A stretch of 64,000 bases of DNA from a virus (taxonomy: Duplodnaviria; Caudoviricetes): IMG/VR virus record IMGVR_UViG_3300021431_000079, positions 101,007-165,006 of that record, one strand, 5' to 3'. Numbering within the stretch: the stretch's first letter is position 1; each line of letters begins with the position of its first letter. Of the stretch, positions 14,319 to 40,615 are shown in pieces. Below the pieces are notes generated by a model. It was not told where the DNA came from. It saw only the letters and a list, made by a program, of their open reading frames with translations, and made no database searches. Made by a program: the position numbers and the translations under genes.

Positions 14319-14525
14319 ATGATCAAGAAACATAAAATGAGTAATAAGCTTAAATGGTGTTTAGGTTTTAGCAAAGCTGTCGATCTTCGTGGGCATCCAA
14401 GATGGAGAACCCGAAAAAAGAATATTCACAGAGTTCAGAAAATGATGCGAAAAGCCTTCAGGCGATGGGGATGCTTTCCTTTACCGCCTGAGTGGAAACA
14501 AAACTCAACTATAAGGAGGGAATGA
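14319..14525 (+). CDS. Cassette small basic protein
   Basis: 68-aa ORF, HPRWRTRKKN motif. Confidence 0.55.
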   Translation: MIKKHKMSNKLKWCLGFSKAVDLRGHPRWRTRKKNIHRVQKMMRKAFRRWGCFPLPPEWKQNSTIRRE

Positions 14526-14527
14526 AA

Positions 14528-14662
14528 ATGGCTTGCCTTTGGTATTTAGGATTAGAAGCAACAGAAGAGTGCATAAAAACGTGTACTATAACAGAGAAAA
14601 ATAGGGATATTTGTGTGCGCCCAGAAACTTTAGACGCAGATGACGATTTTGAGTTAATTTAA
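14528..14662 (+). CDS. Cassette micro-ORF (44 aa)
   Basis: AGGAGG RBS; MACLWYLGLE... Confidence 0.5.
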   Translation: MACLWYLGLEATEECIKTCTITEKNRDICVRPETLDADDDFELI

Positions 14663-14680
14663 AGGAGTATAGATGAAAAC

Positions 14681-14815
14681 ATGATGCAACTAATAGCACA
14701 TGGCATAGCAAGTGGCAATCTTGTTGCATATATGATACTTTACATAATTCTTTTACCGCCAATAATGCTTATTTGTTTTGCTATTATTGACTGGATAAAG
14801 AACAAAAATAAATAA
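14681..14815 (+). CDS. Cassette micro-ORF, TM peptide (44 aa)
   Basis: MMQLIAHGIASGNLVAYMILYIILL... Confidence 0.5.
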   Translation: MMQLIAHGIASGNLVAYMILYIILLPPIMLICFAIIDWIKNKNK

Positions 14816-14831
14816 CTTAAAGGCAGGTATT

Positions 14832-14984
14832 ATGACAGTAAAGGAGTTGATTGAGAAATTACAGCAAGAAAATCCCGATACGCTTGTTTATACAACGGAC
14901 GATACAAATTATGATGATATTGCTTTAGTGACCGAAATTAGTAGAAATATACTTTTTGGAAAGGAGATCATATTTCTTCATTAG
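14832..14984 (+). CDS. Cassette micro-ORF (MTVKELIEKL type, 50 aa)
   Basis: Common small phage protein start motif. Confidence 0.6.
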   Translation: MTVKELIEKLQQENPDTLVYTTDDTNYDDIALVTEISRNILFGKEIIFLH

Positions 14985-15016
14985 ACGTATATGGAAGGAG
15001 ATTGTTTATTTTTATT

Positions 15017-16066: not shown

Positions 16067-16243
16067 GTGAAGAGATATAGATGTATAGAGTGTAAACATT
16101 GTAATGAAGATGAAAAGAAATGTTATCCTCAGTCGAAAGATTGTCAGGCTGAATATGACTTAACAGAAGATGATATTTATGAGTATTCAACCGAACGCTG
16201 TGATTTCTTTGAGGCGAAAGTTGAGAAGATGGAGGATGCATGA
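16067..16243 (+). CDS. Cys-rich 58-aa protein, paralog of 26277-26450
   Basis: GAGGTG RBS; MKRYRCIECKHCNEDEKKCYPQSKDC... Confidence 0.7.
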   Translation: MKRYRCIECKHCNEDEKKCYPQSKDCQAEYDLTEDDIYEYSTERCDFFEAKVEKMEDA

Positions 16244-17085: not shown

Positions 17086-17109
17086 TTATAATTATATGTG
17101 AGGTTAGTT

Positions 17110-18933
17110 ATGAGAGTAGAAAATAATCAACCAAGAAACATAGCTATATATGCACGAGTATCTACAGAACATGAGGCACAACTATATGCTCTTGACAATC
17201 AAATAGACTGGTACGAAATCATACTACAGAGTCACCCCAATTGGAATATCATTCATAAATATATTGACAGGGGAATCACTGGAACATCTGCAACAAAAAG
17301 ACCACAATTCATGCAGATGATAAAAGATGCAGAGAGTAAAGAGTTTGATCTTATCATCACTCGTGAGGTTTCGAGGTTCGCAAGAAACACAGTTGACACA
17401 TTACAGTACACCAGACAATTGAAAAAGATCGGAATAGAAGTCTATTTCGTTGAGGATAACATCTGGACATTTGATGCAGATGGTGAGTTGAGACTAACTA
17501 TTATGGCAACTCTCGCTCAAGATGAGAGTAGAAAAACATCACTGAGAGTTAAAGCAGGACAAAGGGCAAGTATGGAGAAAGGTGTGTTCTTTCAGAACGG
17601 AAGCATACTTGGATACGATAAAATAGGTAACAACATGGTAATAAACCCAGAACAATCTGCTACTGTCAAATTGATATTTGATCGGTATAATTCAGGGATG
17701 GGTGTTCGTAAAATTCAATGGGAGCTTGAATCACTTGGCAGAAAAACAGCCAAAGGTAGCACAAAGTGGACTGCTTCTGTAATATGCAGAATCTTGAAGA
17801 ACAAATTCTATGCAGGATACATTGTGTGGTACAAGCAATTCGTTCCTGATTTTCTTGAACAGAAGAAGATCAATAACCACGGAGAGAAAGAGCAGTTTGA
17901 AGTTCTTGGAAGTCACGAGCCAATAGTATCTCTTGAAGATTGGGAGCTTGCTCAGAGAAGATTGGAGCAATCAAGTCAGATAGTCAACAAGGGTAGAAAG
18001 GTCGGTGCTAAACCTAAGACAGGGTTATGGACAAACAAGCTTAGATGTTCATGTGGTAGATCATTCAACAGAAAGATATGGCACAAGGATAAAAAAGATG
18101 GATCAATCCAATATGGATACCAATGTTACAGCAGTATAAAGTCTGGATCAGTTGCAACAAGAATAAATAAAGGCTTGCCACTTGATGGAATCTGTAAGAG
18201 TCCTGCGATCTCAGAGTGGAAGCTTGAAGCAATGGCACTATATATTTTCAAAGATTTTACCTTCAATAAAGATAGAATCATCCAACTTGGAATGCGTGAA
18301 ATAGAAAAAGCATTAAGGTCTGTTAATAATAATGATAACAAAGAACAAATAAATAGTCTAAAAAATGAGCTTGACAAATACAATAAAAAGATAGATAATC
18401 TAATCGAAATGCGCACAGATGGGGAGATCTCTAAAGAGCAATTCACCGCAAAGAAAAAGGACTTTGAAATCGAGATAAACAGAATAGAGAAAGAGATAGA
18501 ATCAATAAGTGATAAGCAGGATGCCATTAAAGATATCCCACAGTTATTGAGTGAGTTCAAAGCAAATTTAACAAGCATGTTGAACGAGCCTATTGTGGAT
18601 AAAGTGCCTGAGTATATTATTGATGCTATGGTTGAGTATATCTTGGTGGATGAGAATAAGTTCACTTGGAAGCTACGCTATCCATCTGATAAGTATTATT
18701 TATCTATTGATGGTAGTAAAAAACAGCATACAGTGTCAGAAAGTCCATCTTTACGTCAATGCCTCACAGGCTGCAATACACGAAATGCGGAACAAGCAGT
18801 AAACAATATCTCATTTACAAACGATTCTATCCTCATCTTATTTGATAAAAAGATGGTACAGCAATATGGCAATCTCAAACCAACAGATAGAATCCACAGA
18901 TGGTATGATATTGTGATCGAGATTATTTTTTAA
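17110..18933 (+). CDS. Large serine recombinase (integrase)
   Basis: YARVST catalytic motif, SRFARN, recombinase domain, Zn ribbon (CSCG...C...C) and coiled coil. Confidence 0.95.
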   Translation: MRVENNQPRNIAIYARVSTEHEAQLYALDNQIDWYEIILQSHPNWNIIHKYIDRGITGTSATKRPQFMQMIKDAESKEFDLIITREVSRFARNTVDTLQYTRQLKKIGIEVYFVEDNIWTFDADGELRLTIMATLAQDESRKTSLRVKAGQRASMEKGVFFQNGSILGYDKIGNNMVINPEQSATVKLIFDRYNSGMGVRKIQWELESLGRKTAKGSTKWTASVICRILKNKFYAGYIVWYKQFVPDFLEQKKINNHGEKEQFEVLGSHEPIVSLEDWELAQRRLEQSSQIVNKGRKVGAKPKTGLWTNKLRCSCGRSFNRKIWHKDKKDGSIQYGYQCYSSIKSGSVATRINKGLPLDGICKSPAISEWKLEAMALYIFKDFTFNKDRIIQLGMREIEKALRSVNNNDNKEQINSLKNELDKYNKKIDNLIEMRTDGEISKEQFTAKKKDFEIEINRIEKEIESISDKQDAIKDIPQLLSEFKANLTSMLNEPIVDKVPEYIIDAMVEYILVDENKFTWKLRYPSDKYYLSIDGSKKQHTVSESPSLRQCLTGCNTRNAEQAVNNISFTNDSILILFDKKMVQQYGNLKPTDRIHRWYDIVIEIIF

Positions 18934-22496: not shown

Positions 22497-24584
22497 TTAA
22501 TAACCTCTCACTGTATTAAATTCAATAAATCCAGATAATCCATTTAGTGGTATTGCAGAATTACTTGCATTACTTAAAATAATATTCACACCCAACTCAG
22601 TTACACCGCTTGAATCAACAGTGATAGCGTTAGAAGATTGAGTTGTAGTACCATTAACTGTTTTATAACTTGTTACGCCAGATACATATAATCCAGAGTT
22701 TGTTGGGCTATTTAAAGATACCGATATAGAATGTGTTCTTCCTGTGAGATCACTAATATCTGAACTACTTAAAACATAGGTATAGATATAGCTTCCATTT
22801 GCCGCAATACTATCCGTAATTGTTGTATCAGATGGAATAGTAACAACTGTTTTTCTTGGAATAACATATTTTGTATCTGTAACAGATACAGCCCACTGTT
22901 CTTCATCGTTGGCATCAGTATAACAGCTTATTGTTAATACACTTGCAACAAAATTATATGCGCTATTATATTTTACGGATATGTATCTGGTCGCACTAAT
23001 TCCACCAGAAACATTATTATATGGTAAATATACAGTTGATTCTCCTGCATACATCGGACTCTCAAGTACAACATATTGTGGATAATATTTAAACTTACCA
23101 ATTTTGTTTTTAATATTTTCAAGATCACCTATTGTATAAGTTGTAGTTCCACCATAACTTACTTTACTTATCTTAATAGCTAATACGTTGGACGATGTAG
23201 ATGATGATGAAAGTAATACGCCTAACTGTATGGCACTCATGGTTACTTGATCTGATGTACCATAACCAAGTGTAAGACCACCAGATAAGTATTCATTACC
23301 GCCCCAATCTAACATTCTCGCATTAGAGCGACTTGTATTTGCTGTACCATTTCCAACCATTTCAACATAAGTACCACGAGCACTCGCTGATGATACACTA
23401 CTATTTAAGTCGTTATTATATTCGCCAAAAACACGAGCGGATCTTCCAGACGCAATTGTTCCTTGTCCCTCGGCATGAGACATATTACCAGATGCATTTG
23501 TATTATAACCTTCAGCGTGAGAATTTAAACCAGACGCTGTATTATAGTTTCCTTCAGCATGAGAATTCGCGCCAGACGCAGTAACATTAGACCCTTCAGC
23601 ATGAGAAAAAACACCAGACGCTGTATTATATAATATATTGTTTGTTATTAGTCCATAGTCACCAGTTCCTTTTGCAATTCTATCTGAAAAATCATCTATA
23701 CCAAGCATTGTCTTAATAGCAGACTTCGCATCATTAGTATATGTTCCTATAGTATTACTTGATTGTGACTGGGTGGTGTCTCCTGCAGCTTTAGCAAGAC
23801 CATAAAAAGCAGACTCATGTTGATGTGATGGGACAATTGATTTATTGCCCTCTGTTCCAGTTTTAATCTCACCCGATGAAGCAACACTTTGTGATACCAC
23901 ACCATTACTAACGGATAAACCAGAGCCAACTTTCAGAATTCCAAAATTATTTTGTGTTGCATAATCTGTATTTTTTACATAGTTACTCAGATCAATAGAA
24001 TCTTCCACATCAGAAACAATCTCAGATTTATCTGTTGCAGTCCAATAATCAACACCTTTTACTGGTGTATAACCGTTCTGTCCGTTACTTCCTGCATCAC
24101 CCTTATCACCCTTAGCCCCAGTATCTCCCTTGTCTCCTTTATCGCCCTTATCTCCTTTATCACCCTTCACGCCTTGAATGCCCTGAATACCTTGTGCTCC
24201 CGTATCACCCTTATCACCTTTGTCGCCTTTTGCACCTTGAGCACCCTGAGCGCCATCTTGTCCGTTTTCACCATCTTTACCATCATTTATTGTTGCAATT
24301 GCTACGCTGTCAACATAAACAGTTGTTACACCATTGCTTTTACTTGCTGTAATAACTGGTGTATAACCATCAGCACCTTTAAGAGGTTGGGTATCATAAC
24401 TTGAACCATCGGCAAGAGTTATTGTTAATGTGCCATCTTGGTTCTGCGAGATATTTGTAATCCCCATACCCGGAGAACCCTCTTTACCATCTTTACCTCT
24501 TTCTCCGGGTTCTCCCTTTTCTCCTCGTGCTATAATTAATTTAGTAACAATGTTATTGTCAAAATCATAATTTATATTATTCAT
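22497..24584 (-). CDS. Tail fibre/adhesin with collagen-like and ASG-SHAEG repeats
   Basis: Gly-X-Y runs (GDKGDK); tandem ASGxxSHAEG beta-roll repeats. Confidence 0.8.
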   Translation of the reverse strand: MNNINYDFDNNIVTKLIIARGEKGEPGERGKDGKEGSPGMGITNISQNQDGTLTITLADGSSYDTQPLKGADGYTPVITASKSNGVTTVYVDSVAIATINDGKDGENGQDGAQGAQGAKGDKGDKGDTGAQGIQGIQGVKGDKGDKGDKGDKGDTGAKGDKGDAGSNGQNGYTPVKGVDYWTATDKSEIVSDVEDSIDLSNYVKNTDYATQNNFGILKVGSGLSVSNGVVSQSVASSGEIKTGTEGNKSIVPSHQHESAFYGLAKAAGDTTQSQSSNTIGTYTNDAKSAIKTMLGIDDFSDRIAKGTGDYGLITNNILYNTASGVFSHAEGSNVTASGANSHAEGNYNTASGLNSHAEGYNTNASGNMSHAEGQGTIASGRSARVFGEYNNDLNSSVSSASARGTYVEMVGNGTANTSRSNARMLDWGGNEYLSGGLTLGYGTSDQVTMSAIQLGVLLSSSSTSSNVLAIKISKVSYGGTTTYTIGDLENIKNKIGKFKYYPQYVVLESPMYAGESTVYLPYNNVSGGISATRYISVKYNSAYNFVASVLTISCYTDANDEEQWAVSVTDTKYVIPRKTVVTIPSDTTITDSIAANGSYIYTYVLSSSDISDLTGRTHSISVSLNSPTNSGLYVSGVTSYKTVNGTTTQSSNAITVDSSGVTELGVNIILSNASNSAIPLNGLSGFIEFNTVRGY

Positions 24585-24650
24585 AATTATATTCTCCAAT
24601 CATTATCTTGCACATAAAGAATATAATATATTATAACATTAACATATTTA

Positions 24651-25640
24651 TTATGAGCAATATCTATAATAAGCGTTTTTAACGTTATCCTTTTCGATGT
24701 AAACATATTTCATTGTGGTGTCAATTTTGTCGTGACCCAAAATATAAGCCACATCCTGAATCGACATACCACGCTTAATTAAATTCGTTGCAAGTGTTCT
24801 TCTAAATCTATGCGGATGAACATTCACAACACCAACTTTTTCAGATAACTTTGTCAACATAAATCTAACTCCATGCTGAGTTAGTCTTTCTGATCTCTTA
24901 CCAATTCCAGAGAAGAGAGCTTCGCTATCATCCGTTCTACTTTCAAAATACTGCTTGAGATACATAGCCGTGATATCATCTATGTAAACAGTACGCTCCT
25001 TATTCCCTTTACCAAGTACACGCACTTCAAGATTCTTGAAATCAACATCGCTTTTATTTAATCTTGTCACTTCACCGATTCTACATCCAGTAGAAATAAG
25101 AAAACAGACAAGCGCCTTATCTCTGATATTAATACAACCTTCTTTTAATTTCTCTATTTCAACACTGTCAAAAGGTAGTCTTTCTAACTTAGCATACTTA
25201 ATCCTACTTAGATTAATGCATGGATCAGTAGGGATAAGATTTTCTCTAAATAACCATCCGAAAAACGAGCACATGACACTTCTATATCCATTCAACGTTC
25301 TATCAGATATTCCACGACTTTTTAATCCTGCTAAATAGTTTCTAATGTGATATACACTTATATCTCTGGTTGGAACATTGATCTTTTCATACATCTTCTC
25401 AAGCACATAACGATAATGCCCCAATGTCTTTGAAGAACAACCTTCAATCTGCTTAGAGGAGATAAATGCATCCAATAAGTCTGCGCTATCATCATTTTTA
25501 ATTTCATCAATATTAACAGAACAGACAGAGAGATTATTCGCAACAACTTCCATCACCATAAACAGATCATCATATGACAACTTCGATATAAGATCGTTTT
25601 TAATATTTTTAATTAAAACCTGCTTATCAGCAATTGACAT
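24651..25640 (-). CDS. Tyrosine recombinase (XerC/D-like, with N-terminal SAM-like domain)
   Basis: TGCRIGE (R), GKGNKER (K), HRFRR (HxxR), LGH...TTMKY (H, Y); catalytic set intact. Confidence 0.95.
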   Translation of the reverse strand: MSIADKQVLIKNIKNDLISKLSYDDLFMVMEVVANNLSVCSVNIDEIKNDDSADLLDAFISSKQIEGCSSKTLGHYRYVLEKMYEKINVPTRDISVYHIRNYLAGLKSRGISDRTLNGYRSVMCSFFGWLFRENLIPTDPCINLSRIKYAKLERLPFDSVEIEKLKEGCINIRDKALVCFLISTGCRIGEVTRLNKSDVDFKNLEVRVLGKGNKERTVYIDDITAMYLKQYFESRTDDSEALFSGIGKRSERLTQHGVRFMLTKLSEKVGVVNVHPHRFRRTLATNLIKRGMSIQDVAYILGHDKIDTTMKYVYIEKDNVKNAYYRYCS

Positions 25641-25686
25641 AGCATATACCTCACAATAACACACAAGCAACTATAATGTTATAGCA

Positions 25687-25715
25687 ATTATAACATGAGA
25701 CAATATAAATGTCAA
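25687..25715 (-). promoter_or_regulatory. Consensus SigA promoter of the tyrosine recombinase
   Basis: Minus strand TTGACA-17nt-TATAAT with TG extension. Confidence 0.8.
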
Positions 25716-25761
25716 TTTAAATATAATGTAAGATATAAATAATAGCTAATAAAACAGTCAA

Positions 25762-25798
25762 AAATAGCCCCGCTCTATAATATAGAACAGGGCTATTT
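25762..25798. terminator. Terminator between the cassette array and the recombinase
   Basis: AAATAGCCC...GGGCTATTT hairpin. Confidence 0.7.
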
Positions 25799-25889
25799 AT
25801 TATTATATCGTATTCAGTTTTTATTCAATTTTTATTCGGTTTTTTATTTTAAGTACATTGTGTTGTGATGCGAAAAAGGCCGTTCATAT

Positions 25890-25908
25890 TACTTACCAAA
25901 AGCGTCCT
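25890..25908 (-). repeat. 19-bp direct repeat copy 1 / putative recombination site
   Basis: TACTTACCAAAAGCGTCCT, identical to 26819-26837. Confidence 0.9.
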
Positions 25909-25922
25909 ACTAATGTTAGGTA

Positions 25923-26141
25923 TTATACACTATTAGTATCTACTGTCCTCTCCCGATGGAGATGCTCTTTGAACATTCGACAGTCACTTTGCAGGCAAGC
26001 TTTCTCGAACGGAGAGTCACAAGATGCAGAACCGTCAGAATTGTAATAAATGTGCTTACAATTGTCGCACGTTTCTATTCTGTGTTCTTTCCCGTGTTTC
26101 CGCTTACGTCTTTCCAACAGCCATCTTGTCACGATACTCAT
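25923..26141 (-). CDS. Cassette Cys-rich small protein (72 aa)
   Basis: Start lies within site TAAAAGGAGCGCTAATG; CDNCKH...C...C...C. Confidence 0.6.
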   Translation of the reverse strand: MSIVTRWLLERRKRKHGKEHRIETCDNCKHIYYNSDGSASCDSPFEKACLQSDCRMFKEHLHRERTVDTNSV

Positions 26142-26276
26142 TAGCGCTCCTTTTACAATTTGCGGCATAGCAGAATCGAACTGTCTATTATACGGTGTCA
26201 CGCACTCGCTCTCTACCCTTGAGATAATGCCGCAGATTGTTTATGGTGTTTTAACATAAAGCCATAATAAACAGAT

Positions 26277-26450
26277 TTATACACTCATGTTATTTACTTT
26301 CGGTTTATAAAAATCACACCTTTCAGTAGAATAGTCATAGATATCATTATCTGTAAGCGCATATTCACTGAGACAATCCCTCGATTGAGGATAGCACTTC
26401 TTTTCATCTACATTACAATGTTTACATTCTATACACCTATATTTCTGCAT
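26277..26450 (-). CDS. Cassette Cys-rich 57-aa protein, paralog of 16067-16243
   Basis: GAGG RBS; MQKYRCIECKHCNVDEKKCYPQSRDC... Confidence 0.7.
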   Translation of the reverse strand: MQKYRCIECKHCNVDEKKCYPQSRDCLSEYALTDNDIYDYSTERCDFYKPKVNNMSV

Positions 26451-26587
26451 AAATAATCCTCATTTGCGTTCTATTATATGTAGGTATATTACACCATTGA
26501 TATATACATTCCTCTCCTGATACCGACTGTCCTACATTGACAACAGAGTGCCTACTTTGGTACACTAATGTCGAGGAGGTGATACGG

Positions 26588-26773
26588 ATGGGTATCAATG
26601 GAGGCCGTAACATCCGGGGAGTTGAAGAGGAGGGTGGATATACCAAATTCAACATCACTCTCCCTCCGTCCCTGATCGAGCGTCTGGATAAGTACATGAG
26701 GGAAGAAGAACGCAACCGCTCATGGACAATCCAAAAGGCACTCGATGCTTACCTAAGAGAGAAGGGCTATTAA
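26588..26773 (+). CDS. Ribbon-helix-helix (CopG-like) regulator
   Basis: KFNITLPPSLIERLDKY...RSWTIQKAL; GAGGAGG RBS; candidate promoter TTGACA..TACACT upstream (about 26538-26567). Confidence 0.85.
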   Translation: MGINGGRNIRGVEEEGGYTKFNITLPPSLIERLDKYMREEERNRSWTIQKALDAYLREKGY

Positions 26774-26818
26774 GCCCCTCTCTTTTTGTCTCCCCTGATA
26801 ACCACCAGTAGTTATTGA

Positions 26819-26846
26819 TACTTACCAAAAGCGTCCTTTAAGTTAG
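26819..26846 (-). repeat. 19-bp direct repeat copy 2 / putative recombination site abutting the fibre stop codon
   Basis: Minus strand TAA-CTTAAAGGACGCTTTTGGTAAGTA. Confidence 0.9.
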
Positions 26847-28717
26847 TTGCTCGGCAGTAATGATTTTATCTTACCGCCAATAAGGTTACCAATCCGTTCC
26901 CGTCCTTTTTCGTTCGGATGTGTTCCATCATCAGCCGGATAGAAATAAAGCCTTGTAAACGGGTTAAAACTTGTTTCATGATAAAGGTCAAGAAACGGAA
27001 CGTTCATATCAGTACAAGCCTGCTTATATGCTTCCGCATATTGCAGAAGTGTACCGCTACCCCAATCTTTCGTATCACTATATGATTCAGGCGTTGTCGT
27101 TCCATCTTGGAAGAACGTTCTGAAAATCGGGCAGGTCACAAGGATTTGAACGCCCGGATACTTGGACAAAATTTGCTTTATCGAATACCGAAGCGCACCG
27201 CAAACAGTGGAAGTATCAAATTTATTATTAGGATTGTCGAGTGTGCTTGATGGTTCTCTATAATCGTTCGTTCCATAGGCAATTATTATTGCATCCACTT
27301 TTGAAAAGTCACAAGCATTTAGCCAAGCAACAGTATTCCTGTAATATCCCGGCATTCCACTCCAACCCGTGTTGATTGCAGAGACAAGGCTTGTGAAATC
27401 ATCAGCATATATATCGTCTGCAAGCCTGTACATAGAGCAGTTATCCCACCCGGTTGCGTGTACGCTCATTCTGCACCCGCCAAATCCGAAGTTAAAAACC
27501 GTTGCACCACAAGCTTTGCTAATAAATGCAGGAGTTGAGGTTACATCTCGTGTGTTGCCCATTATGGAGTCTCCAAATACTGCAATTCGTTTTCCCTGCA
27601 ATGCAGTATTATCGGTCACAATTTGGCTCTTGATTTCGTTCCCGTCCGCAAAAAGATCGGATGTACTGTAATCAGTGACAAACCATTTCAGTGGAGAAGC
27701 TGAATCATTAACACCAACACGGATGAAATATGCATTATTCGGCGCAATAAACTTTATAAAGCCGCCATCCCAATCGCATCTTGTGTGGTCGTACCCGCTT
27801 GCGTACACAAAAGTGTCTGCCAACCCAATAGTGCCTGCATCATAAAAGCACACTGTTATTGCATTATATTCAAAAGATGGTGCATTGTTTTGATTGAACA
27901 GCCCCAACTTATATGTATTTCCGGGAGTGATGGCAATAAAATCAGAAGCTCTATATCCGTCATTGTCAAAGACTCGGCCTGTAGTATTTTGCAGATATTT
28001 ATTATCTTCTATGTTTCCAACAATATTATAACTGCCATGCAGATTGACAACTTCATTTGATACGTCTTCAATTTCGCGTGACAACGAAAATGCGTTTCCC
28101 CAATATGGTTCATATTCCGTTTTTGTTTCTCCGATTTCCACTTGAAGATTTTTATGAATATCTCTTGACCAACGAATATACCGCACTTCGTAATCCGAAC
28201 TAATGCCGATCGTCCTTTCAGATACGTTAGAGGGGAATGTATAATAATTTAACTGTGTCTTGTTAGCATCATAGATATAAAGGTACATACCAGAATATCC
28301 ACAATTTGAACCGTCAGCCGTTGACAATGTAAGACGCTCGCCGCCATTAAGAAAAACAGGATAATAAACGTTGGGATCGGTTCCACATAAATTTTTCCCT
28401 TGCCCAATCCAATTTAAAGCGCTCTTTAAGTCAGTAATTTCGTCACCAGTTTTCTTTGCATCTGCCGCCGCACCTGCAACGGTAAGTGAATTATCTACTG
28501 CATATCCTTCCTGAATATGCTGACCCAACCAAGTGCTTGCAGTCGTGGCTACTGGGTCAGTTACAACACTTGGGTTCGTGTCTATATATGTGTCTATGGC
28601 ATCTACTACTTGTGTATCTGTTGGGTAACCAGTGTCACCCTTGTCTCCCTTTTTTCCTCTCGCAACTACCAATTTTGCTTTTATACTATCTTCAAAATCA
28701 AAATCAATATCTGCCAT
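26843..28717 (-). CDS. Tail fibre/receptor-binding protein with C-terminal SGNH/GDSL esterase
   Basis: N-terminal anchor with short collagen-like stretch; FGDSI, GTND and DGTHP SGNH blocks. Confidence 0.85.
   Translation of the reverse strand: MADIDFDFEDSIKAKLVVARGKKGDKGDTGYPTDTQVVDAIDTYIDTNPSVVTDPVATTASTWLGQHIQEGYAVDNSLTVAGAAADAKKTGDEITDLKSALNWIGQGKNLCGTDPNVYYPVFLNGGERLTLSTADGSNCGYSGMYLYIYDANKTQLNYYTFPSNVSERTIGISSDYEVRYIRWSRDIHKNLQVEIGETKTEYEPYWGNAFSLSREIEDVSNEVVNLHGSYNIVGNIEDNKYLQNTTGRVFDNDGYRASDFIAITPGNTYKLGLFNQNNAPSFEYNAITVCFYDAGTIGLADTFVYASGYDHTRCDWDGGFIKFIAPNNAYFIRVGVNDSASPLKWFVTDYSTSDLFADGNEIKSQIVTDNTALQGKRIAVFGDSIMGNTRDVTSTPAFISKACGATVFNFGFGGCRMSVHATGWDNCSMYRLADDIYADDFTSLVSAINTGWSGMPGYYRNTVAWLNACDFSKVDAIIIAYGTNDYREPSSTLDNPNNKFDTSTVCGALRYSIKQILSKYPGVQILVTCPIFRTFFQDGTTTPESYSDTKDWGSGTLLQYAEAYKQACTDMNVPFLDLYHETSFNPFTRLYFYPADDGTHPNEKGRERIGNLIGGKIKSLLPSN
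28413..28435 (-). repeat. Palindromic putative recombination site inside the fibre gene (encodes TDLKSAL)
   Basis: ACTGACTTAAAGAGCGCTTTAAA; 17/20 identical to the site at the gene's stop. Confidence 0.7.
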
Positions 28718-28734
28718 ATTTTCACCTCCTCATA

Positions 28735-29070
28735 TTATCTTGTAACATCGGGCATAAGATCTATTTGTCCAATCAGGATTGTATAAACATCACTTTCTAT
28801 AGTGACTTCTAAATCATAATAATAATTTCGTGTTGGTAAAGTATTCGTATCTTCTGGCGCAATTCTTACATTATATTTTCCTGCTTCTACTAAGGAGATA
28901 CCATTATCCATTGTTTTTTGAAAAACATATTCAGTATCACTAAGATCAGACTTGCAAGAAAAAACAGCGCTATCAATAGTATCGGGATTACCATCAGTAT
29001 CCTGAACAAGAAATCCGAATATCAATGAATCACCACGAACTAATTTAAAATTCTTATTCGTTGTTACCAT
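28735..29070 (-). CDS. Baseplate/fibre adaptor (BppU N-terminal-like)
   Basis: LVRGD...IAPEDT..L....YYYDLE pattern. Confidence 0.65.
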   Translation of the reverse strand: MVTTNKNFKLVRGDSLIFGFLVQDTDGNPDTIDSAVFSCKSDLSDTEYVFQKTMDNGISLVEAGKYNVRIAPEDTNTLPTRNYYYDLEVTIESDVYTILIGQIDLMPDVTR

Positions 29071-29082
29071 AATATCACCACC

Positions 29083-29727
29083 TTAAATGTTTACGTTTAC
29101 GGTGTTATTTTCATCATGTTTATCTATCGCATCAATTAAAGCTTGTAAAGAGATACCATTACCCACACGAGTATTATCATGAGCAAGGTGAATATCTTCT
29201 GTAGTAATTACAATATCATTAGGAGCAGAAGAGGATATAATGCTTGCCTGATCTCTAAGTGCCATAATATTTTGCTGATTCTGTAAATAAAGCTGAGTCA
29301 GTTGTGTAAGCGCAGTATCAGGAGCGGAGAACCATGATTCAACAGGAAGAATGTTTAAGTGTCCAACTTGTATTCTTCGAACATAATTAATGGTTTTTCC
29401 AGTATCAGGATCAAGATCTGCCTTAATGAACGATAAAGAAAATTGTAAATCGCCCGCTTCTTTTGTTAGGCCAGAATTAAGAGGAAGCTGATAAGCATAG
29501 TAGAGATCTTTGTAATTGTTATCAGCAATAGTCAGAGTTTCTATCTGTATCTCATGACTGATAGGAAGATAACCCTCAATCACTAAATCAAACTCACTCA
29601 TATCAAAACCATTGTATTCTTTCTCTACAATAAATTGCAGTGTGTCAACAAGGCTTGACTTCTCCATAATCCTGTCTTTTTCTGTGGCGATTAATGTATT
29701 ATCTTGACAAATTAAAAAGGTATACAT
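29083..29727 (-). CDS. Baseplate upper protein-like
   Basis: Position after Tal; LTKEAGDLQFSLSF pattern. Confidence 0.55.
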   Translation of the reverse strand: MYTFLICQDNTLIATEKDRIMEKSSLVDTLQFIVEKEYNGFDMSEFDLVIEGYLPISHEIQIETLTIADNNYKDLYYAYQLPLNSGLTKEAGDLQFSLSFIKADLDPDTGKTINYVRRIQVGHLNILPVESWFSAPDTALTQLTQLYLQNQQNIMALRDQASIISSSAPNDIVITTEDIHLAHDNTRVGNGISLQALIDAIDKHDENNTVNVNI

Positions 29728-29747
29728 AGTAAGACCACCTTTCGAAA

Positions 29748-29978
29748 TTATTGTGGTTGATTTTCCTTCTGTTCTGGTTCTGCCTTTTTCATTTCAGCAA
29801 GAGCTTGGTTATAAGCTTGAAGCTCTGCATTGTATTGTTCTATTGCCTTGTTATCTAAGATCGGCAACAGAGTCTTTATCGAATCAACCATGCTAAACAT
29901 CGGCAAACCAGAATTCTCAATCACACGAAGTAAATTTTGTTTAAATTCTTCAATTAATAAAATCAATGATTTTTCCAT
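29748..29978 (-). CDS. Small tail-associated hypothetical protein
   Basis: 76 aa, AGGAG/AAGGA RBS. Confidence 0.55.
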   Translation of the reverse strand: MEKSLILLIEEFKQNLLRVIENSGLPMFSMVDSIKTLLPILDNKAIEQYNAELQAYNQALAEMKKAEPEQKENQPQ

Positions 29979-30066
29979 ATTCCTTTTCTCCTCATATTAA
30001 AAAAATATGGATAAGTCCAAAAAGAACTTATCCACAACAAAAATAGTTGTATACTATATTGATATA

Positions 30067-33000
30067 TTACTTTGACATGAGAGCAATTTTATCTTCAAGT
30101 TCTGCTATTTTACTCATAGCATTTTCATATCTCTCATCACTACGTTTCAATTCTTTCTGTAACACAGCAACAATATCAGGAATAATTTCTGTCAGGTTGA
30201 CTGCACCATAATAAACTTCCTTATCATCAACAGTAGTTCCAATTTGCCTTGAAACAACCCATTTATTATCTTTCTTAATTGGATCGACTTCATCATAAAT
30301 AAATCCATGGTGATGATCACTGTTTTCATCGCTGATGTATTCAAATTTAGAGGGAATCAAACCTTTGATAAAATCCTCAGAATCATTTGCATTTAATTTC
30401 ACTATGTTCTTCTTTAATCTACGATCAGAAGGATTATTATAGTTGCTTGCAATCATTGTAGTGGCAGAGAATGTGTGAGCAGTTACGGTACAGTTCTCTA
30501 CAGTCGCACCAGAGCTTGTGTGTCTACCTTGGAAAGCAACTGTGTTAGTTCCGCTATTTATAATTCTTGCAGAATAATCATATCCACCGCTCTGTCCGGG
30601 TTGCTTCATTTCTCTATGGAAATCTATATATGGAGAGTTACCATCATTATCTGCTAACAACTCAAGGCCATAGCTTACGAACAACGCATTAGTTACCCAA
30701 GTATCATCATTTGTACTTGAACTGCTTACAGATTGAATAGAACCAAATTTATATTCTCCTGTGCTCTTAATATAAACAGAAGATTTAGCAAATGCAATAC
30801 CATTAGAACCAAGATACACACCATTATGATTCGGGTCTGTAAAGCTCGTCATACCATTAAACAATGCTCCATTTGTTCCAGTACCTATATTCCATGCTCC
30901 AAGTCTCCCACCATTTGCGGCATAGATATATCCATCATAGTTAATATAAAATGTATTCGAATAAGTTCCATATGTAGAACCATTATATGTTCTTTGTCGG
31001 CATTGAAGTGCCACGGAATCAGCCTTTGGATTCGAAGGACAATACAACCTAACATTATATTGTGTAGAAGATGTTCCAGACGTAACCGTACTTTGATTAT
31101 ATATCTCGGTATCATTTATCACCCATCTACCAAATCTTCCTGTTGTAGCATTAACCGTACCACTGATCTCAGCGCTCTTAGCAACTAAATGACCATCATT
31201 TCTAACAACAAATGTTGGGGTATAGTTTGAGAAAGTGCTTCCATCATAAGAACACTTTTGAACAGAGATAGCCCATCCACCGTCACCCGCATTTTCAGTT
31301 CCCCATATTTTCTTTAGGTATGCGGAATCAGTTGGTGTTCCTACTGTATAGTTAGTAAACTTATGAATATCATTTGTACTGATTACCCAACCTGCAATGT
31401 TACCAGATGAAGCAGTAATATTACCTGCAATCTTCGCATTCTTACAATACATATAACCATCTTGTCTAACATAGAAATTAGATGCAGTTTCAGAAGCAAT
31501 CGCGCCTCCTGCGGCAGTATTTGTCCCTGCATAAAATACAGCACTACCATTAGTTGCTGTTGCTGTATTTTGCATACCAACCCTATAACCACCACTACCA
31601 GTTAAATCTTTCTCTATTCTTGTTCCATTAATAGCCCATCCACCAATATTAGCAGATATAGACTCAAGATTATTTACTTTGATTTTATCAGCAGTTATAG
31701 ATCCAGTGTAAATTTGAGCACCATCAATCTTTGTCTTGTCATTTGAATTGCACCAAAGAGAAGAGTAGCTTAACGTAGACAAAGCAGTAACATCTGTGAA
31801 ACTCGTAATGCCATCCGTGTATACAATCATATCACACATGAAATAATAACAGTTCCGTTTAGGATCTGGCATTGACTTACACCACTTATTTGTATCACTA
31901 TCAGATAGTGTAGAATAAATAGTCGTAGTAGATGTTGGTTTGCTTGGTATGGTATTCGTTGTAGACCTATAATAAATAGGTGTGGTCTGCTTGATTGTTT
32001 TCATTACTCCTCTATTTGAAACATAGGTATGAGTAGTCTCGCCAGTTTCAAACATCGGAAAGAAGGTAATACCATCTGACGGTGTTGCATATCCAGAGAA
32101 AATCACAATATAAAGATGCACATACTTGAATCCGGCAGAAACGGTAACTCCACTTCCGCTGTCTGTATATATTGTACCGCTTGTTGCTGTCGGTGTTGTT
32201 CCATCTGCCGTACACCTTGCACACAGAGAATATGAGGTATTTGTTCCTCCCGAAGGACAGCCTGACAGTCTGTACTTTTTATTTGGATCAATAAACAAAA
32301 CAGATTGTTCATTTGTCAATTCGGGTAATGTATATCCCGTAATGGTAAAATATGTCTCTCTCGTTGCAGTTCCAGTTACCTTCACAGAACCATCAGGATT
32401 AACTGTAAATGTTAATCCATTCACTGTCCAAGGTGAACCACTAACATACTCTCTATTATAAACAGACGGAACAAGGTTTATCGCAGGTATTGTAGCAGAT
32501 AAACTTGTCACAGCGGCATTCGCATCATCAGCAGTCTGCTGTGCATTATCTGCGGCAAGTTGAGCGGCAATAGCGGCTTTTTGTGCAGATGTCTCTGTCA
32601 ATACCCAATTTGTTCCATCATAAATAAATGTAACAGTATCTTTATTCTTCCAGTAATAATCAGAAGTAATTGCCGCACCATTAGCATAAATAGGTTTAGC
32701 ACCAGTTCCACTTACATTCAATGTTGGGTTTGCTACTGTATTTTCATTATTAAAATACACAGTAACAGTCGCACCAGTATACAGCAGGAAGTCATTTATT
32801 GTTGTTGTCTTTGCCGCTGTATTTGCAGATGTCGTACACAAACCATAGTTTGCTTTGGTAGCTTTAAGATCGTTCTTAACCTCATTGTTAAAGCTTGAAT
32901 ATGTAACAGCACCATTAAGGTTAATCCTTTCTGCATCAACCTGATAAGTGGTAGCAGTTTGGTTAACCCTTGATATGATTTCATTACCATTAAAATCTTC

Positions 33001-36000
33001 CTCAGATACTTTAGACTCTATGCTATCAGCATTTATTTTTATAGATGCTTCTGCCTTTTTAATTCTTGTGGCAGAATTATCTACTGGACTTTTCCATGCA
33101 TGTATAATAATACCGCTTTCCAACATAGGATAGAAAGTAATATTGTTAACAGTTGCACCACTACCAACACATATTCTGATTAACATTTCTGTTTTTTCAG
33201 TAAGCACGAGAGAAACACCAGTACCATAATCATACCAATATACTATAGGAGAGGTGCTTACTGTACTTAATCGCATATAATAACTGGCATTCGAACCACC
33301 CGGATAACAACCACTTAAGCTATATGCTCCCGGTTGTAACTCAACCCTATTTATATCTATATACGATCCACCAATATCACTTGTACCATTAGCGGTAACA
33401 GAACCATCAGTATGAATGGTATATGTAATTCCAGATTTTTGTATCACATAATCAGATGTACCCTCATTATTACCATGAGCAAGATAAGGATAGGTGAGCA
33501 TATTATCAACAGACGATAACTCTTTATCTGCCAAGCACCACTCAGAAGCATAGCTACCACGTTCAATCTTGAATCCGCACATCTCATTGGATGCTACAGC
33601 ATTGTATTTAACGAGGAATGCAAAGGCTATCCCACCATTCTTCATCGTGTTTTCCGGGGCAACAAATGTAAAGCTGTATCTTTGCCATCCTACTGACGCA
33701 ACATCTGATTCATATATTATAGTATAATCAGTAGCATTCGGATCTGTTTTATATCCAAAAGCAATAGTGTTTCCACTACCAATAATACCATAACATGATA
33801 CAGTATATGTTTCTCCCGCAGTTAAAATAGTACCACAATCATCATCATAGAAAGCAATACCATAATAATTGTTATCAGGAGAAGAGGAGCAAAGGCATCT
33901 TACTAAATACCTGATGTTGGTTTGTGGCATTTCAAATCCATAATTAGAATCTTCTCGTATAGAAACTGTATTACGTAACGAACCAGTTGCCACAATTTTC
34001 TTATCAGCGACAGCAGATATCCTAATAGTACCCGGAGTATTCGTATCAAGCAATAACTGCTCCCCACCTCTACGATATGAATCTTCTGGGGCGGGAGTCC
34101 ATGCGGTAGCCTTATTACCAAATTCAACCTTAAGATTCCTGATAGTCACAATAAGACCATCTGGTAATTGTCTTCCTTCGACCCTGATCTTTGTAAAGTT
34201 GGCGCTCTTATCAGCACTTGTAATCTTAAAGGATTCACTCACATGACCAGAACCAGTTGAAATATCAGCAACACCAGAAACATTTTCAGGTAGTCTCGGT
34301 GGAACATTAAATCCCACATAAATAGAACCAGACGGAGTAACGTTATCACTTGTGCTCCAATCATAAGAGAATGTTACCCAACCATCAATTACATTATCAG
34401 AATAACTTCTCCAAGTATCAGATAAATAATATGAGTCGTTTGAAACAACACTCTCACTCGTACCAATAATAGATGCAGGATAAACAGTATCCAACACAAT
34501 ATTTCTTCCACCAATGGAGAAATCATCAAACGCCTGTTGAACCTTAGCTTCTATAGACTGTTCAAGAATAGTCACTTGAGCTTGAGATTGTGTAACGCCA
34601 GTAATGCTTGATCCCTTCTTAGGAGGAGTAAACAGCTCACCACCAAATATTACACCATCTTCACCATACATATATGTTGCAATAACAATATCTGTTGACT
34701 CAACAAAAGCCCATAAGAATGGATTACCATGAGAACCATCATTAGCTGTATATTTTACAGCCTTATAAGATTTTGTGTTTTCATCCCACCAAGCATCATA
34801 ATGTCCACTGTCGCTTGTTCTATACACATGATAGATCGGGGTGTTATATGGAATAACATCAGTATACATACCATTCGCAGGATAAATCCATACGCCTTTT
34901 GCAATATTAACTTTCTGTTTATTCCACCATACCCAACCATCAACATCCGCTCTATTTCCGCTATCATTGAATCCACAGAAATAGCATCTTCCATCATTTG
35001 GATATAAAAACGATCCGTAATTTACCAACCAAGAAAGTCCAGTGTCACCAAGAGAATCATCAAGATAATCAAGATGATTCGTGTATTTACCATTAACTAT
35101 ATTTTGAATAGAAGAGTTCGTAATAAGAGTCTGGACAGAACTATCATATTGATAGAAATGCTCTTGAAGAGTATCATTAATAACAGTAGTCCATTCATAA
35201 TGTCCATCAGAATACTTTAGCTGATGGCACATATAAAGGTGGCAATACACATCAGTCCACAACGGCCTTCCCTGTGTCCATTTGTTTGCCACATTACCAG
35301 TCTCAGTAACAGCCACAACTGGCTTACTCGGAGGAGTGGTCATATCAGAAGATATATAAAGTGGGATATCTTCAGTAATACTATTCTCCATATAGATTAC
35401 TGACCACGAGAATATCTTATTTATGGTAACACCACCAACAGTAACAGGAATGGTTAAGAATCCAGTCTGCTGTGTGAGGTTTTCTGTTGTAGATACAGTG
35501 ATAGAGGTTCTTGTTGTACCATTGTAATTCACAGTTGCGGTTAACGCTCCTTCAATTGTTCCAGTGATAGTTCCAACAGTAGTGTTAACACGAGTAGAAC
35601 CCTGATAACCAATAACATCAAATGTCACACTGTCTACTTCGGCACTTGTATATCCACCTGCAAACATATGGGAATCATTTGTAAGGATTGCAACCCTTGA
35701 ATCCGTTCCGTCAGCAACAACAGGTATTGTCTGGCTGTCAAGTAATACAGTTGTTCCACCTGCTTCATACAAGGAGCACTTAATATATGTAAGTGATTCT
35801 TGTATATTAAAAGTAACAGTAGAATCATCCTGAGTAAACGTGTAAATTCTGTCACTATCACTTTCGGCATTATATGTTTCAATTGTAAATCTACCAACAT
35901 AATCTGTTGGAGCATTGTCACCAACTTTTTGATATGCATGGAACACAAGTCTATTTGGACTATTTGTTCCATCATTTCCTCTTACAACTGCATAATAATC

Positions 36001-39000
36001 TGATTCCAAATACCTTCTAACAGCTGCCTGACCCTGATTACCATAAGCGCCAATAATACACGGATTTGTTGAAGATGGATTGCCAGTTGTATAAGTGATC
36101 TCCTCATAATTCCAGAGATATTTATTTGTTGGTGTTATATTTTGAATTGTTTCAGTCCATCCAGAAGTGTCCTTTGTTACACCAGAGGACTGACTTGTGG
36201 CAAGGTAGTAATTCGTAATGCTGACAATTCCCCTACCATCTGTTCCACTTTCACCATAAACGCCAATAACACGCTTACCAGTGGGAGCAATACTTCCGTT
36301 AGAATAATTTACGATCTCATAGTTCCAAAGATATTTGTCTGTTGGTGTCATTACTGGAATAGTTGTAGTGAACTCACTGTCAGAAGGAGCAGAAGAGGAC
36401 GAATTAGATATAGCGTACTTTTCAACAATACTGCTAATCCCAACACCACTTGTTCCAGAAGTTCCGTATGTACCAACTATAATAGGCGTGGTTGATGTTT
36501 GCGTAGCAGAATCCCCATACCCATATGTATATAAATGGTACATCCATAAATACTTATTTGTCTCACTGATAACAGCTTGTGAAGCATCTGTTGTCCAACC
36601 CGGAGTAGATGTTGTTACACCAGAATCCAAATTGGTTGCAAGATAATAAAGAACATCACTTGTGATAGCACGACCAGAAAGATCATTAACCTTGCTTAAT
36701 GCTTCAGCGGCATCCGCAATAGCCTTAGCCGCACTACTATCCTCAATCAGATACCATTGATATTGTCCATTGATCAAGGAGAAACGATATGCGAACCCAT
36801 TGTATTCATCACTTGATTGCACATAATACATATCACCCAAGTGTCTGTTTTTCGTTTCATCAGTTCTCCAATTGACAGCAGGTTCATTAGTTAAGGTAGG
36901 AACAACAGAACCATTCCATGTTTCAATAGTACCATCAATCTGGCTTTGAATATCTGCAATAGTCTCATCAAATGTTTTTCCTGTTGTCATGGTAATACTG
37001 CTACCATTAAAAACAAGGTTTCCATTTTCATCTATATAAACTTGTTTCTCAATATTAAATCCACCCTGACCATCACTTGTCTTTTTCTGGATGGTAAATG
37101 TATTCGAATTTACATCATCATCACCATTTGATGTAATAGTGATTCCGTTCTTATCAATGGTCACATCACCATTCTCGCTGAAGATACTCATATCTTCACC
37201 AAGGATCATGTTGCCTATCAATTGTTTTGCAATGATACCATAACCTTCTTCGATCTGACCAGTCTTTGGATTATAATAATCAAATCTACCAAGTGCGGTT
37301 TCTGTAGTTTCCCAATTATCTGTAGTAAAGGCAAGAGTTGTATTAATCCACTTGGATTGAAAATCAGAATAGTCTTGCTCTATATCATCCCACTGTTTCA
37401 TTGACATACCAGTATCATCAAGAACCATTGTTTGATTAGTGGCATTAAGGATTCTCATTGTAGTTAAGTCGAGTCCCTTTTTAATCCAATCATTCACCTG
37501 TTCTTTTGTCTGTACTGAAGTAGCGGCTTGATACTTAATTGACTCATATGATTTTGCCATTGACTTTGCTGATTCAAAAATATCAGAAAGGCTCGTATCG
37601 CCATGTCCAACAACATCAGAAAAGTCTACCTGAATAGTATCAATACTATCAAAATCAATAGAATAGGAGAGAAGTCTTACACGATATATCTCACCATCTA
37701 CCTTTATTCTAATCCAATTTCCAACTGAGAAATAATTCACAAGAGGTTTGAACTCATCAATAGTCAATAAGTTATTCAGCGTAGTAGATATAGAATGATT
37801 TTCTGTTGCCGCTTTATGAATCTCATAATTCGCAATCTGAACAAACTCAGCGGCTTTCTTAAATAACTCAGCATTGTCAAGCCCATCAGAAATATAATTA
37901 TTATTCTGATAATCATCTTCCATTTTATACGAATACAGTTCCGTTGCAAGATCCTGACCAAGATAGTTAACAATATCCAATGTATCATTGATGATGTGCT
38001 TACGTTCCATAAGACTATCATATAAATCTTCAATAGCGGCGATCTCTTCATCACGAGTTTTTACCTCTGCTTCAATTGCCCTTAGCTTTTGAACATATGG
38101 AAGATAAATATAAGTATAGGCATTTACTCCACCTTCAACCAGTGCGGCACTTGTTGGATTGGAGATTCCCATTTCAACCATTACACCAATAGCACCTTCA
38201 CAAGCAGAGAGAATAGATGCAAGTCCTGCTCTGGAATATTTCTTTAATCTATCCTTGAAATCTTCAATTCCAAGATCAAACAGTTCTGTTATAGAATAGC
38301 TATTCTTATCTAATTGGGCTACAGCCTTTTCAATCTTTTGTCTTGCATATATCTCATATGTGTCGTTGATTGGAATGTTAATTGTATCTGTTGTTGCCGT
38401 ATCCTCTTTATCAGATACAGCGGTAACCTCAAAGCTACCTGTCCAAATATGATTCACAGAATCATAAACAGAGGATACGATCTTGGCTTTATATCTTGTA
38501 TCAAGAATAATCTTGGTTGCATTAACAACAGCATTATCAACAGTAGTAGAAGATGCAGACCTTAGATTCGCCACAGCAACAGACGGAAGATTAATAGGTG
38601 TTATCCTATTTGCCTGTTCTTGTGCCGTAGTGTCCATATCTAATGTCGGTAATAAACCAGACTCAAGATAGATTTGAAAATCCATAACATCATAGACAGC
38701 GTTCATCAACTGAGCATATCCAATAATATCATCTATCTTAACAAGATCATCTTTGTATGGGAGATATTTATCTACTAAATGATTATATAATGTTAACTTT
38801 GCTGTTGGAATTGGAACATCATAAGTGTTCTCATAGTATTCATAATCAGCATCATAAGCAGATAGGCCATTCTTCAACTCAGGACTCATATCTTCCTTCA
38901 TCTCATCTGTGAAGTACCAGATATATTGAGAGCCATTTGGGTTAGAGGAGATAATAGCCGCATCCATCAAACCATCACCAGACAATAATCTGAAACAGTT

Positions 39001-39813: not shown

Positions 39814-39817
39814 TTTA

Positions 39818-40615
39818 TCACACTCCAATCTTTGCTAATGGACGATAAGATATCGTAACATTACATGGCATAGATAAAGTATACGTGTTCCTTTTCTCAT
39901 CAAATGTATTTATAACTTTTGGATAGATATAATTAAAATCATTTGCTATATCATGTGAAGTATCACCAGAGGTGATGATAGGATGATAAATAGCGATAGA
40001 TTCATTTGCGCTACAGTTTTTAATTACAGTTGATTCATCAGGTGTCATATTATTGGAGATAGTTAAGTCTCCGCTATTTAAACAAGTGATGATAAACTTC
40101 GGATACAGTGTACCAACTTCATCTGAGGTGTTAAGAATAGAAAGTGAAGTTGTGTTGTTGTATGTGTAGCTTCTCTCCATATCCCATCCAAAAGGACTAT
40201 TCGTAGTTAATGTTAATTCCAATCCAATGATATTTGTTCCTGCTCTAACCTGATTGATAGTGAAAGAGCCATAATATGTTATGTTCTCATAACCGTTTGA
40301 ATACAATTGAAATGGCAAGTATTCTTTTCTCTGTAACCATCTTGCCAAATCCCTTACGTCTTCTACAGATAAATAATCACCTTGTGACCACATATCACAA
40401 ACACTTTTGCAAATACAAAACGTTGTCGTTATAACAGTTTCATATGATATTCCTGATATTGTCCGTTTAATCCCATGTTGTAGCGGCACTTCAGCGAATG
40501 TAATCTCAGCACCATTAGAGATCTGATCATTTATCCCACTAAACTGGCAAATAATATATCCTTTTTCACTTAAAAGGATTCCATCATACATAAAATCCAT
40601 TGCGCTTACACTCAT
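39818..40615 (-). CDS. Distal tail protein (Dit)
   Basis: Lies between tape measure and Tal; NSPFGW motif. Confidence 0.75.
   Translation of the reverse strand: MSVSAMDFMYDGILLSEKGYIICQFSGINDQISNGAEITFAEVPLQHGIKRTISGISYETVITTTFCICKSVCDMWSQGDYLSVEDVRDLARWLQRKEYLPFQLYSNGYENITYYGSFTINQVRAGTNIIGLELTLTTNSPFGWDMERSYTYNNTTSLSILNTSDEVGTLYPKFIITCLNSGDLTISNNMTPDESTVIKNCSANESIAIYHPIITSGDTSHDIANDFNYIYPKVINTFDEKRNTYTLSMPCNVTISYRPLAKIGV

Follow-up and report, generated by a model that had tools for sequence, protein, structure and literature searches.

How can the tip of a phage tail fibre be replaced while the DNA on both sides of it remains unchanged? This question is raised by the fibre locus of a 64,000-nt stretch of Caudoviricetes DNA, called the window here, which spans bases 101007–165006 of the 165,006-bp virus record IMGVR_UViG_3300021431_000079, rated complete by CheckV and belonging to a phage of about 165 kb of gut or rumen-type metagenome origin. 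In the window, a fibre gene of 624 amino acids (aa) at 26843–28717 on the minus strand is divided by a short dyad, before which the protein is constant and after which it is exchanged for unrelated segments in other genomes. Our analysis supports three sites (A within the gene, B at its stop codon and C further downstream) that bound two cassettes, at least four alleles of the tip sharing a backbone, and an association with an Xer-like recombinase that recurs. The explanation towards which we lean is a site-specific exchange of the tip through the adjacent recombinase, resembling integrons or recombinase-mediated cassette exchange (RMCE), and not an inversion.

A first-pass annotation of this DNA had proposed that the fibre C-terminus is a swappable cassette, fused in frame to a constant anchor of about 100 aa and bounded by two direct sites matching at 17 of 20 nt. 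Variants were searched for with residues 1–110 as query, followed by look-ups with the exact neighbouring proteins. The query retrieved a protein of 675 aa whose first 102 residues are 97% identical, whereas the remainder is unrelated and contains a Peptidase_M14 domain. The 164-kb contig that encodes it (L001) is 100.000% identical to the window over 38717–28421 and 26839–18000; between these flanks of 10.3 kb and 8.8 kb, the 1581-bp SGNH cassette of the window gives way to an M14 cassette of 1740 bp. In L076/L087, whose flanks are 99.97% identical, a 721-aa fibre ends in a metallophosphatase tip (Metallophos), and in a relative at 94.9% identity (L074) the break occurs at the same base and leads into a fourth cassette. 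The proposal of a swappable C-terminus is borne out by these alleles: residues 1–99 (28421..28717, minus strand) are kept, at 100% identity in L001, L076 and L077 and at 95% in L074 up to window 28421, and the coding part of cassette 1, residues 100–624 (26846..28420, minus strand), is replaced by other cassettes in L001, L076 and L074. Fusion in frame turned out not to be obligatory. At L074:10001–11542, the anchor open reading frame (ORF) stops 20 residues past the junction; the next gene, which encodes more than 388 aa, is separate and has a ribosome-binding site of its own. A cassette can therefore bring a partner protein that is not fused.

All four alleles share their sense strand up to ...ACTGACTTAAAGAGC and then diverge, the break lying after ...TTAAAGAGC (window 28421). 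The 5′ limits of the four unrelated cassettes fall within 2 nt of one another, and their 3′ limits all abut the same 18-mer, GGACGCTTTTGGTAAGTA, which occurs twice in the window (26819–26836 and 25890–25907; 19 nt with the preceding A). Misassembly is unlikely because three of the variants recur in a second, independent assembly (L092 for M14, L077 for SGNH and L078 for the metallophosphatase); the sites are shorter than the overlap of 55 nt between L076 and L090. Two contigs of a single NCBI metagenome assembly agree in their downstream genes, with spacings that match the M14 and SGNH variants, respectively, the SGNH one being recognised from geometry only. Several contigs from other samples end 10–155 nt before site A, and the 10-nt distance is shared to the base by three of them; tip exchange, if confirmed, would account for the breaks at fibre genes in assemblies of such phages. 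A megablast of 24000–30000 against the phage GenBank collection gave no match, exact-pattern scans of IMG/VR with the 5′ constant sequence, the 3′ constant sequence and the 18-mer found nothing, with records close to the window's own possibly missing from the set, and a metagenome scan for the 18-mer returned only the second M14 copy (L092) and the unrelated L091, with no new cassette. Among the fibre loci of IMG/VR, no near-identical copy of any of the four cassettes was present, the closest SGNH cassette being 64–68% identical; therefore, recent transfer between lineages could not be demonstrated.

What marks these limits in the DNA? The 20-mer at 28416–28435 matches 26828–26847 at 17 of 20 positions on the same strand, its single other match in the window at three or fewer mismatches. 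None of 100 dinucleotide-preserving shuffles gave any match to the 20-mer, and the whole 165,006-bp genome contains no further copies of the site pair. The two direct sites are as they had been annotated, and the segment between them encodes all that follows ...DAKKTGDEITDLKS in the 624-aa ORF. Site A (28408..28435, minus strand) has the sense sequence ACTGACTTAAA-GAGCGC-TTTAAATTGGA, an 11-6-11 dyad that lies in frame and reads T-D-L-K-S-A-L-N-W. Its core on the sense strand, TTAAAG-AGCG-CTTTAA, is the palindrome that was noticed in the first pass as reading through as L-K-S-A-L; as a general feature of the junction it did not hold, some cassettes at this junction being without it. Site B (26820..26847, minus strand; sense ACTAACTTAAA-GGACGC-TTTTGGTAAGT) overlaps the fibre stop codon, is one base out of frame relative to the fibre gene, and contains the point, 26839, at which identity with L001 resumes. 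A third site had been overlooked: an exact 19-mer, AGGACGCTTTTGGTAAGTA, is found at 26819–26837 and again at 25890–25908, where site C (25891..25918, minus strand; sense TAACATTAGTA-GGACGC-TTTTGGTAAGT) has the centre and right arm of site B and a degenerate left arm.

The centres of B and C are identical, and that of A differs from them at two bases (GAGCGC vs GGACGC). All three sites are direct, on one strand, and confined to the fibre locus within the 165-kb genome. As predicted sites, A and B fit the Xer/dif-type core form of inverted arms of about 11 bp around a centre of about 6 bp, and C has one good arm only. At A, constant and variable DNA meet after the fourth central base; at B and C, they meet at the border of arm and centre. 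Two other types of system do not agree with these data. Single-strand folding of the A, B and C regions gave z-scores of -0.3 to -1.6 against shuffles and no attC-like hairpin, which rejects hairpin-type attC sites; an inversion switch is rejected by the presence of direct sites only, with no inverted site or stored tip in the 165-kb genome.

Base composition gave a divided answer. It had been noted by eye that the cassette is richer in GC and CpG than the flanking genes, and a compositional step was expected at about 28420. Indeed, cassette 1 has a GC content of 0.41 compared with 0.35 for the window, placing it in the top 2% of 1581-nt windows, and the ratio of observed to expected CpG rises at 28420, being 0.55 for the anchor and 1.12 for the cassette. 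A step in GC itself was not found, the anchor having 0.424; the other three cassettes range from 0.40 to 0.48.

Sites B and C enclose an accessory cassette of about 0.9 kb (cassette 2; 25909..26818, minus strand), bounded by the exact 19-mer repeat. It contains an RHH gene (26588–26773, plus strand; RHH_1 in Pfam), a Cys-rich gene of 57 aa (26277–26450, minus strand), a tRNA-like element (26161–26233, minus strand; Rfam tRNA at 31.2 bits for a gathering threshold of 29, with no ARAGORN call) and an ORF of 72 aa (25923–26141, minus strand). In L076/L090, this cassette is missing exactly between the 19-mers and the metallophosphatase cassette is joined straight to site C; in L076, the 18-mer is followed by the DNA of window 25889 and below. 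Both contigs come from one sample, and their overlap starts at site C, where L090 and a Logan contig (SRR873604) also begin exactly (contig starts at 25907). The overlap and the contig starts fit a branching of the assembly graph at site C within one sample. The Cys-rich gene has a paralogue among small genes elsewhere in the window, at 16067–16243 on the plus strand (40/56 residues; 80% DNA identity over 154 nt), in whose flanks no site-like sequence was found, the homology ending at the coding limits. Within cassette 2 there is also a direct repeat of 56 nt (25902–25957 and 26466–26521, 73–77% identical), one copy adjoining site C and the second lying before the 57-aa gene; cassette 2 may consist of two older units fused.

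The gene of an Xer-like tyrosine recombinase of 329 aa (24651–25640, minus strand; PF00589 at 119.9 bits) starts 249 nt downstream of site C. The protein combines a catalytic domain with a SAM-like core-binding domain and lacks an arm-binding domain. Its catalytic set is complete (R187, K211 or K214, H277, R280, H303 and Y312), and these residues are invariant in 8 homologues, K214 excepted. The best model is the Xer-type NCBIfam NF040815, at 219.6 bits for a cut-off of 220; membership of the IntI family is contradicted by 56 bits with TIGR02249 (cut-off 265) and 36.6 with PRK15417 (cut-off 435). A sigma-70-type consensus promoter (TTGACA-17-TATAAT with TG; 25687..25715, minus strand) lies before the gene and is the sole 12/12 match in 24500–29200. 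Because the catalytic residues are complete and a consensus promoter is present, a functional recombinase is plausible.

How could these parts work together? A recombination site would separate the fixed anchor of the distal fibre gene from a tip cassette open to exchange. The direct core sites, in each of which about 6 central bp lie between an 11-bp arm and its inverted counterpart of 11 bp, would bound the tip cassette (A–B) and the accessory cassette (B–C), and we infer that the Xer-like recombinase cuts and rejoins at all three. Recombination of B by C would lead to gain or loss of cassette 2; since the centres of these two sites are identical, this cassette could loop out or insert. The centre of site A differs, and therefore the tip is likelier to be swapped between genomes than excised. 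In the first pass, host range was thought to be switched by replacing the first cassette between the two 17/20 sites. Tips do differ on the same backbone, yet the differing central bases make exchange between genomes likelier than excision. Such replacement may proceed by paired exchange of A with A and of B/C with B/C between co-resident phage genomes, as in RMCE. Simple excision would leave a tipless fibre, and like-with-like exchange would guard against loss of the tip. As translation of the left arm of A gives T-D-L-K, an incoming cassette would either be fused in frame or give a short tail followed by its own gene. The outcome would be an altered enzymatic or receptor-binding tip, probably with changed host recognition and, possibly, host range.

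Three lines of evidence speak against an accident of a single phage, namely the conservation of the junction codons, a 3′ site after the cassettes and the link with the recombinase. A comparison proposed beforehand gave the predicted outcome: the N-terminal 110 aa matched remoter homologues in 653 clusters, and the alignment ended at about query residues 98–107, in proteins of many lengths; a word-indexed search with the same 110 aa gave matches whose precomputed Pfam content varies. Relatives of the SGNH cassette (46–64% identity) occur behind unrelated anchors at the same DLKSA(L/F) junction, and an element of type TAAAGGACACTTTAA or AAAATAACACTTTAAAT follows their stop codon, as in L173 and L175. 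Among the IMG/VR loci with the anchor motif, 56 distinct junctions were compared. Leucine is encoded by TTA in 54 of them, against a background of 20%, and lysine by AAG in 48, against 43%; ...TTTAA stands about six bases further on in the majority. As the use of TTA-AAG is far above the codon background, the DNA of the junction is conserved beyond the peptide. On the 3′ side, a related core (AAAGGACAC-like) was present between -30 and +60 of the stop codon in 16 of 38 junction-bearing fibre ORFs and in 18 of 671 controls (odds ratio 26, p 2e-13), the core pattern having been picked after looking.

The recombinase recurs as well. In about 10 of 70 fibre loci, a homologue (32–50% identity) lies 2–3.5 kb downstream of the junction, in some with an RHH gene between, and two pairs of these loci (L057/L058 and L041/L032) have conserved flanks and different tips beside their own recombinases. 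Site-like 28-mers numbered 12 in the 56.5 kb lying within 700 nt upstream of 87 recombinase homologues and 18 in 879 kb elsewhere, an enrichment of approximately 10-fold; in L132, a perfect 11-6-11 palindrome is located 359 nt upstream of the recombinase homologue. The order of fibre with in-frame junction, cassette, site and recombinase was found in three of the four closest homologues (L094, L096 and L097), the M14-like tip of L096 being only 26% identical to the cassette of L001. In a quick tree of the recombinases, the site label was clustered (7 of 500 shuffles were as low), with site-bearing loci around the clade of the window and in one well-supported clade of 14. Two side observations concern these homologues. 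A different conserved element, TTGCTACTTAATTCAGT, stands at a fixed 225 nt upstream of the recombinase genes of L140, L143–L145 and L151, which form one clade, and is possibly that clade's own target site. The homologues at L009:7571–8557 and L012:9786–10622 contain 7 and 1 in-frame stops, respectively (table 11), along full-length alignments, which suggests stop-codon reassignment in these IMG/VR phages.

Could the same variants have arisen without a dedicated enzyme? The main rival, which we consider rather unlikely, is general or short-homology recombination at conserved linker patches; the anchor-motif DNA on one side and the 18–19-mer or the downstream genes on the other would serve only as homology, and the neighbouring recombinase would be unrelated to the swap. 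Several observations weigh against our preferred reading, and some of them speak for this rival. The 100% identical flanks permit ordinary homologous recombination to reassort cassettes within the population, and any crossover within them yields the observed variants. No recombination product was seen, neither a circular cassette nor an empty site (the anchor joined directly to GGACGCTTTTGG). The sites themselves are imperfect, since the right arm of A varies among cassettes in addition to the degenerate left arm of C, and their consensus and the 3′ pattern were partly derived from the sequences counted. The AADAK...LK motif is very widespread (653 clusters), and for most fibre loci with the junction motif the available sequence contains no recombinase homologue; in L173 and L175, the SGNH-cassette relatives have both the junction and the 3′ element with no recombinase on the contig. 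Conversely, most recombinase homologues occur in other contexts, the AADAK motif being upstream of only 5 of 61 and site evidence being present for about 9–11 of 64; many are without the fibre layout, and therefore the family has other roles too. On the other hand, homology alone does not account for the base-exact common limits of four unrelated cassettes, nor for TTA-AAG being retained so far above codon usage. The non-coding 3′ dyad is conserved after cassettes whose proteins are only 46–64% identical, and the enrichment of sites upstream of recombinase homologues goes with an arm-centre-arm form that is that of tyrosine-recombinase core sites.

It may also be asked whether the recombinase is a housekeeping enzyme, namely a Cre- or Xer-like multimer resolvase or a second integrase that targets the site 249 nt upstream of its gene, with swaps of tips as a side effect at look-alike sites. 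The best score as an Xer-type recombinase agrees with this, as do the position of site C directly upstream of the gene and the many homologues that have no fibre cassette upstream. In P1, loxP likewise adjoins cre. The phage has, in addition, a large serine recombinase (17098–18933), its sole one, about 6 kb from the fibre locus, and roles could be split between the two enzymes. Nevertheless, the left arm lies in frame in the fibre genes of many lineages with conservation at the codon level, the order of fibre, cassette, site and recombinase recurs in separate clades, and the tip is bracketed by two full sites rather than accompanied by one lone site, so that we regard a purely housekeeping role as improbable. 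A remnant of an inversion shufflon of the Rin type, whose ancestor had several silent tips and whose variants arose via different deletions, would share its parts with such systems, namely a constant N-terminus followed by variable C-terminal segments, together with a tyrosine recombinase without an arm-binding domain (PMC6109161), but it is very improbable given three sites that are all direct, the lack of any other site or silent tip in the 165-kb genome, and no variant found that carries more than one tip.

Site-specific exchange through the adjacent recombinase is hence the reading that we retain. Perhaps it is part of something broader, a natural cassette-exchange system in which an in-frame T-D-L-K site is paired with a post-stop site of different centre, and from which unrelated phages of one habitat might draw enzyme tips out of a shared pool, served by an Xer-like recombinase in cis or in trans. 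If this is true, it may allow a phage to be re-equipped in one step without flanking homology; we put this forward tentatively, as a possibility somewhat short of even chances.

What would such an exchange deliver? In the window, the tip consists of a beta-sandwich (119–195), a helix (209–225), a second beta-sandwich (236–349) and an SGNH/GDSL esterase domain (377–620). Residues 378–613 match PF13472 at 62.2 bits (cut-off 32.9) and PF00657 at 47.1 bits, and SGNH blocks I, II, III and V (Ser, Gly, Asn and His) are complete, with GDS at 382–384, GFGG at 411–414, GTND at 482–485 and DGTH at 597–600. A Foldseek search with the fibre model showed that the tip fold resembles CE2-type carbohydrate esterases and a peptidoglycan O-acetylesterase, and the nearest solved chain by sequence is the SGNH part of the tail-associated lysin of phage 80alpha. 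With its intact SGNH set, the tip is predicted to be a carbohydrate O-acyl esterase. The anchor has a short collagen-like stretch, GKKGDKGDTG, and the widespread AADAKKTGDE motif, and its C-terminal end is T-D-L-K-S. In the monomer model, a long helix of residues 80–110 spans the junction of anchor and tip at low confidence. The whole-fibre model is moderate (mean predicted local distance difference test score, pLDDT, of 60) and the anchor is below 50; therefore, no claim is made on the anchor fold.

The fibre gene sits in a minus-strand block of virion genes that includes a tail protein of 3253 aa (30067–39828), three small genes between that gene and the fibre gene, a collagen-like second fibre of 700 aa (22497–24599, minus strand) and, listed after it, the lysis genes. 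The second fibre, which has collagen repeats and four 42-nt repeats, is identical across all variants. Its first approximately 30 residues resemble the start of the 624-aa fibre (D-F-D...KL..ARG.KG..G), and the likeness of the two N-termini suggests a common attachment point. Elsewhere in the window, AAAAGGACGCTTTA occurs at 11448–11462 on the plus strand, 17 nt past an RNA ligase gene, with the central bases of sites B and C, and two public contigs stop 88 and 143 nt beyond that gene. The TTAAAGG at 11448 may simply be a stop codon with a ribosome-binding site; the array of small genes at 11447–14994 is 99.75% conserved in relatives, and the single indel, near 14808–15013, lies away from any site.

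Host range is usually thought to change by point mutation, by slow mosaic recombination or by flip-switches that select from a small set of stored tips. If true, exchange of a site-bounded tip between genomes would be open-ended, the repertoire belonging to the phage community as a whole and not to a single genome. Moreover, an in-frame site together with its recombinase, if confirmed, would offer a ready tool for swapping receptor-binding domains in phage engineering. We searched the full-text literature for integron-like or Xer-like systems combined with tail fibres and found nothing, and broader literature searching gave no description of this arrangement.

Several known systems resemble the locus in part. 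In P22-like tailspikes and the depolymerases of Klebsiella phages, an anchor of about 100 residues is followed by horizontally exchanged enzymatic C-terminal domains. General recombination acting over evolutionary time is held responsible for that exchange, and dedicated sites or a recombinase are not known there; here, the flanks are base-identical and the limits are defined by sites. In engineered cassette exchange with heterospecific lox or FRT sites, two sites of different centre favour intermolecular exchange over excision. The differing centres of A and B/C are alike in this respect and may act in the same way, although RMCE is a laboratory design. The enzymes Gin of Mu, Cin of P1 and Min of p15B are serine invertases that use inverted sites and stored alternative ends, unlike the adjacent enzyme here, which belongs to PF00589 and not to the resolvase/invertase family of serine recombinases. 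Site-specific recombination in these three systems alters the C-terminus of the tail fibre and hence host range (summarised in PMC6109161).

With integrons, the locus shares promoterless units at a repeated site beside a tyrosine recombinase, as well as presence, absence and replacement of units at exact limits. It differs from them in its non-IntI enzyme, in short dyads of double-strand type instead of folded attC hairpins, in a recombinase that lies downstream in the same orientation, and in a first cassette fused in frame to a structural gene. Classical integron parts have been reported in phages as cargo, outside fibre genes (Qi et al. 2023, PMC9892861). Among described systems, the locus comes closest to the Rin shufflon of Bifidobacterium prophages, in which several stored segments are subject to inversion between inverted 11-bp sites (Mavrich et al. 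2018, PMC6109161). Both have a constant N-terminal receptor-binding part, variable C-terminal segments, short border sites and an adjacent armless Xer-like tyrosine recombinase; in the locus described here, however, each genome has one tip between direct sites, the alternatives are found in other genomes of the population, and an accessory cassette unrelated to the fibre is carried in addition.

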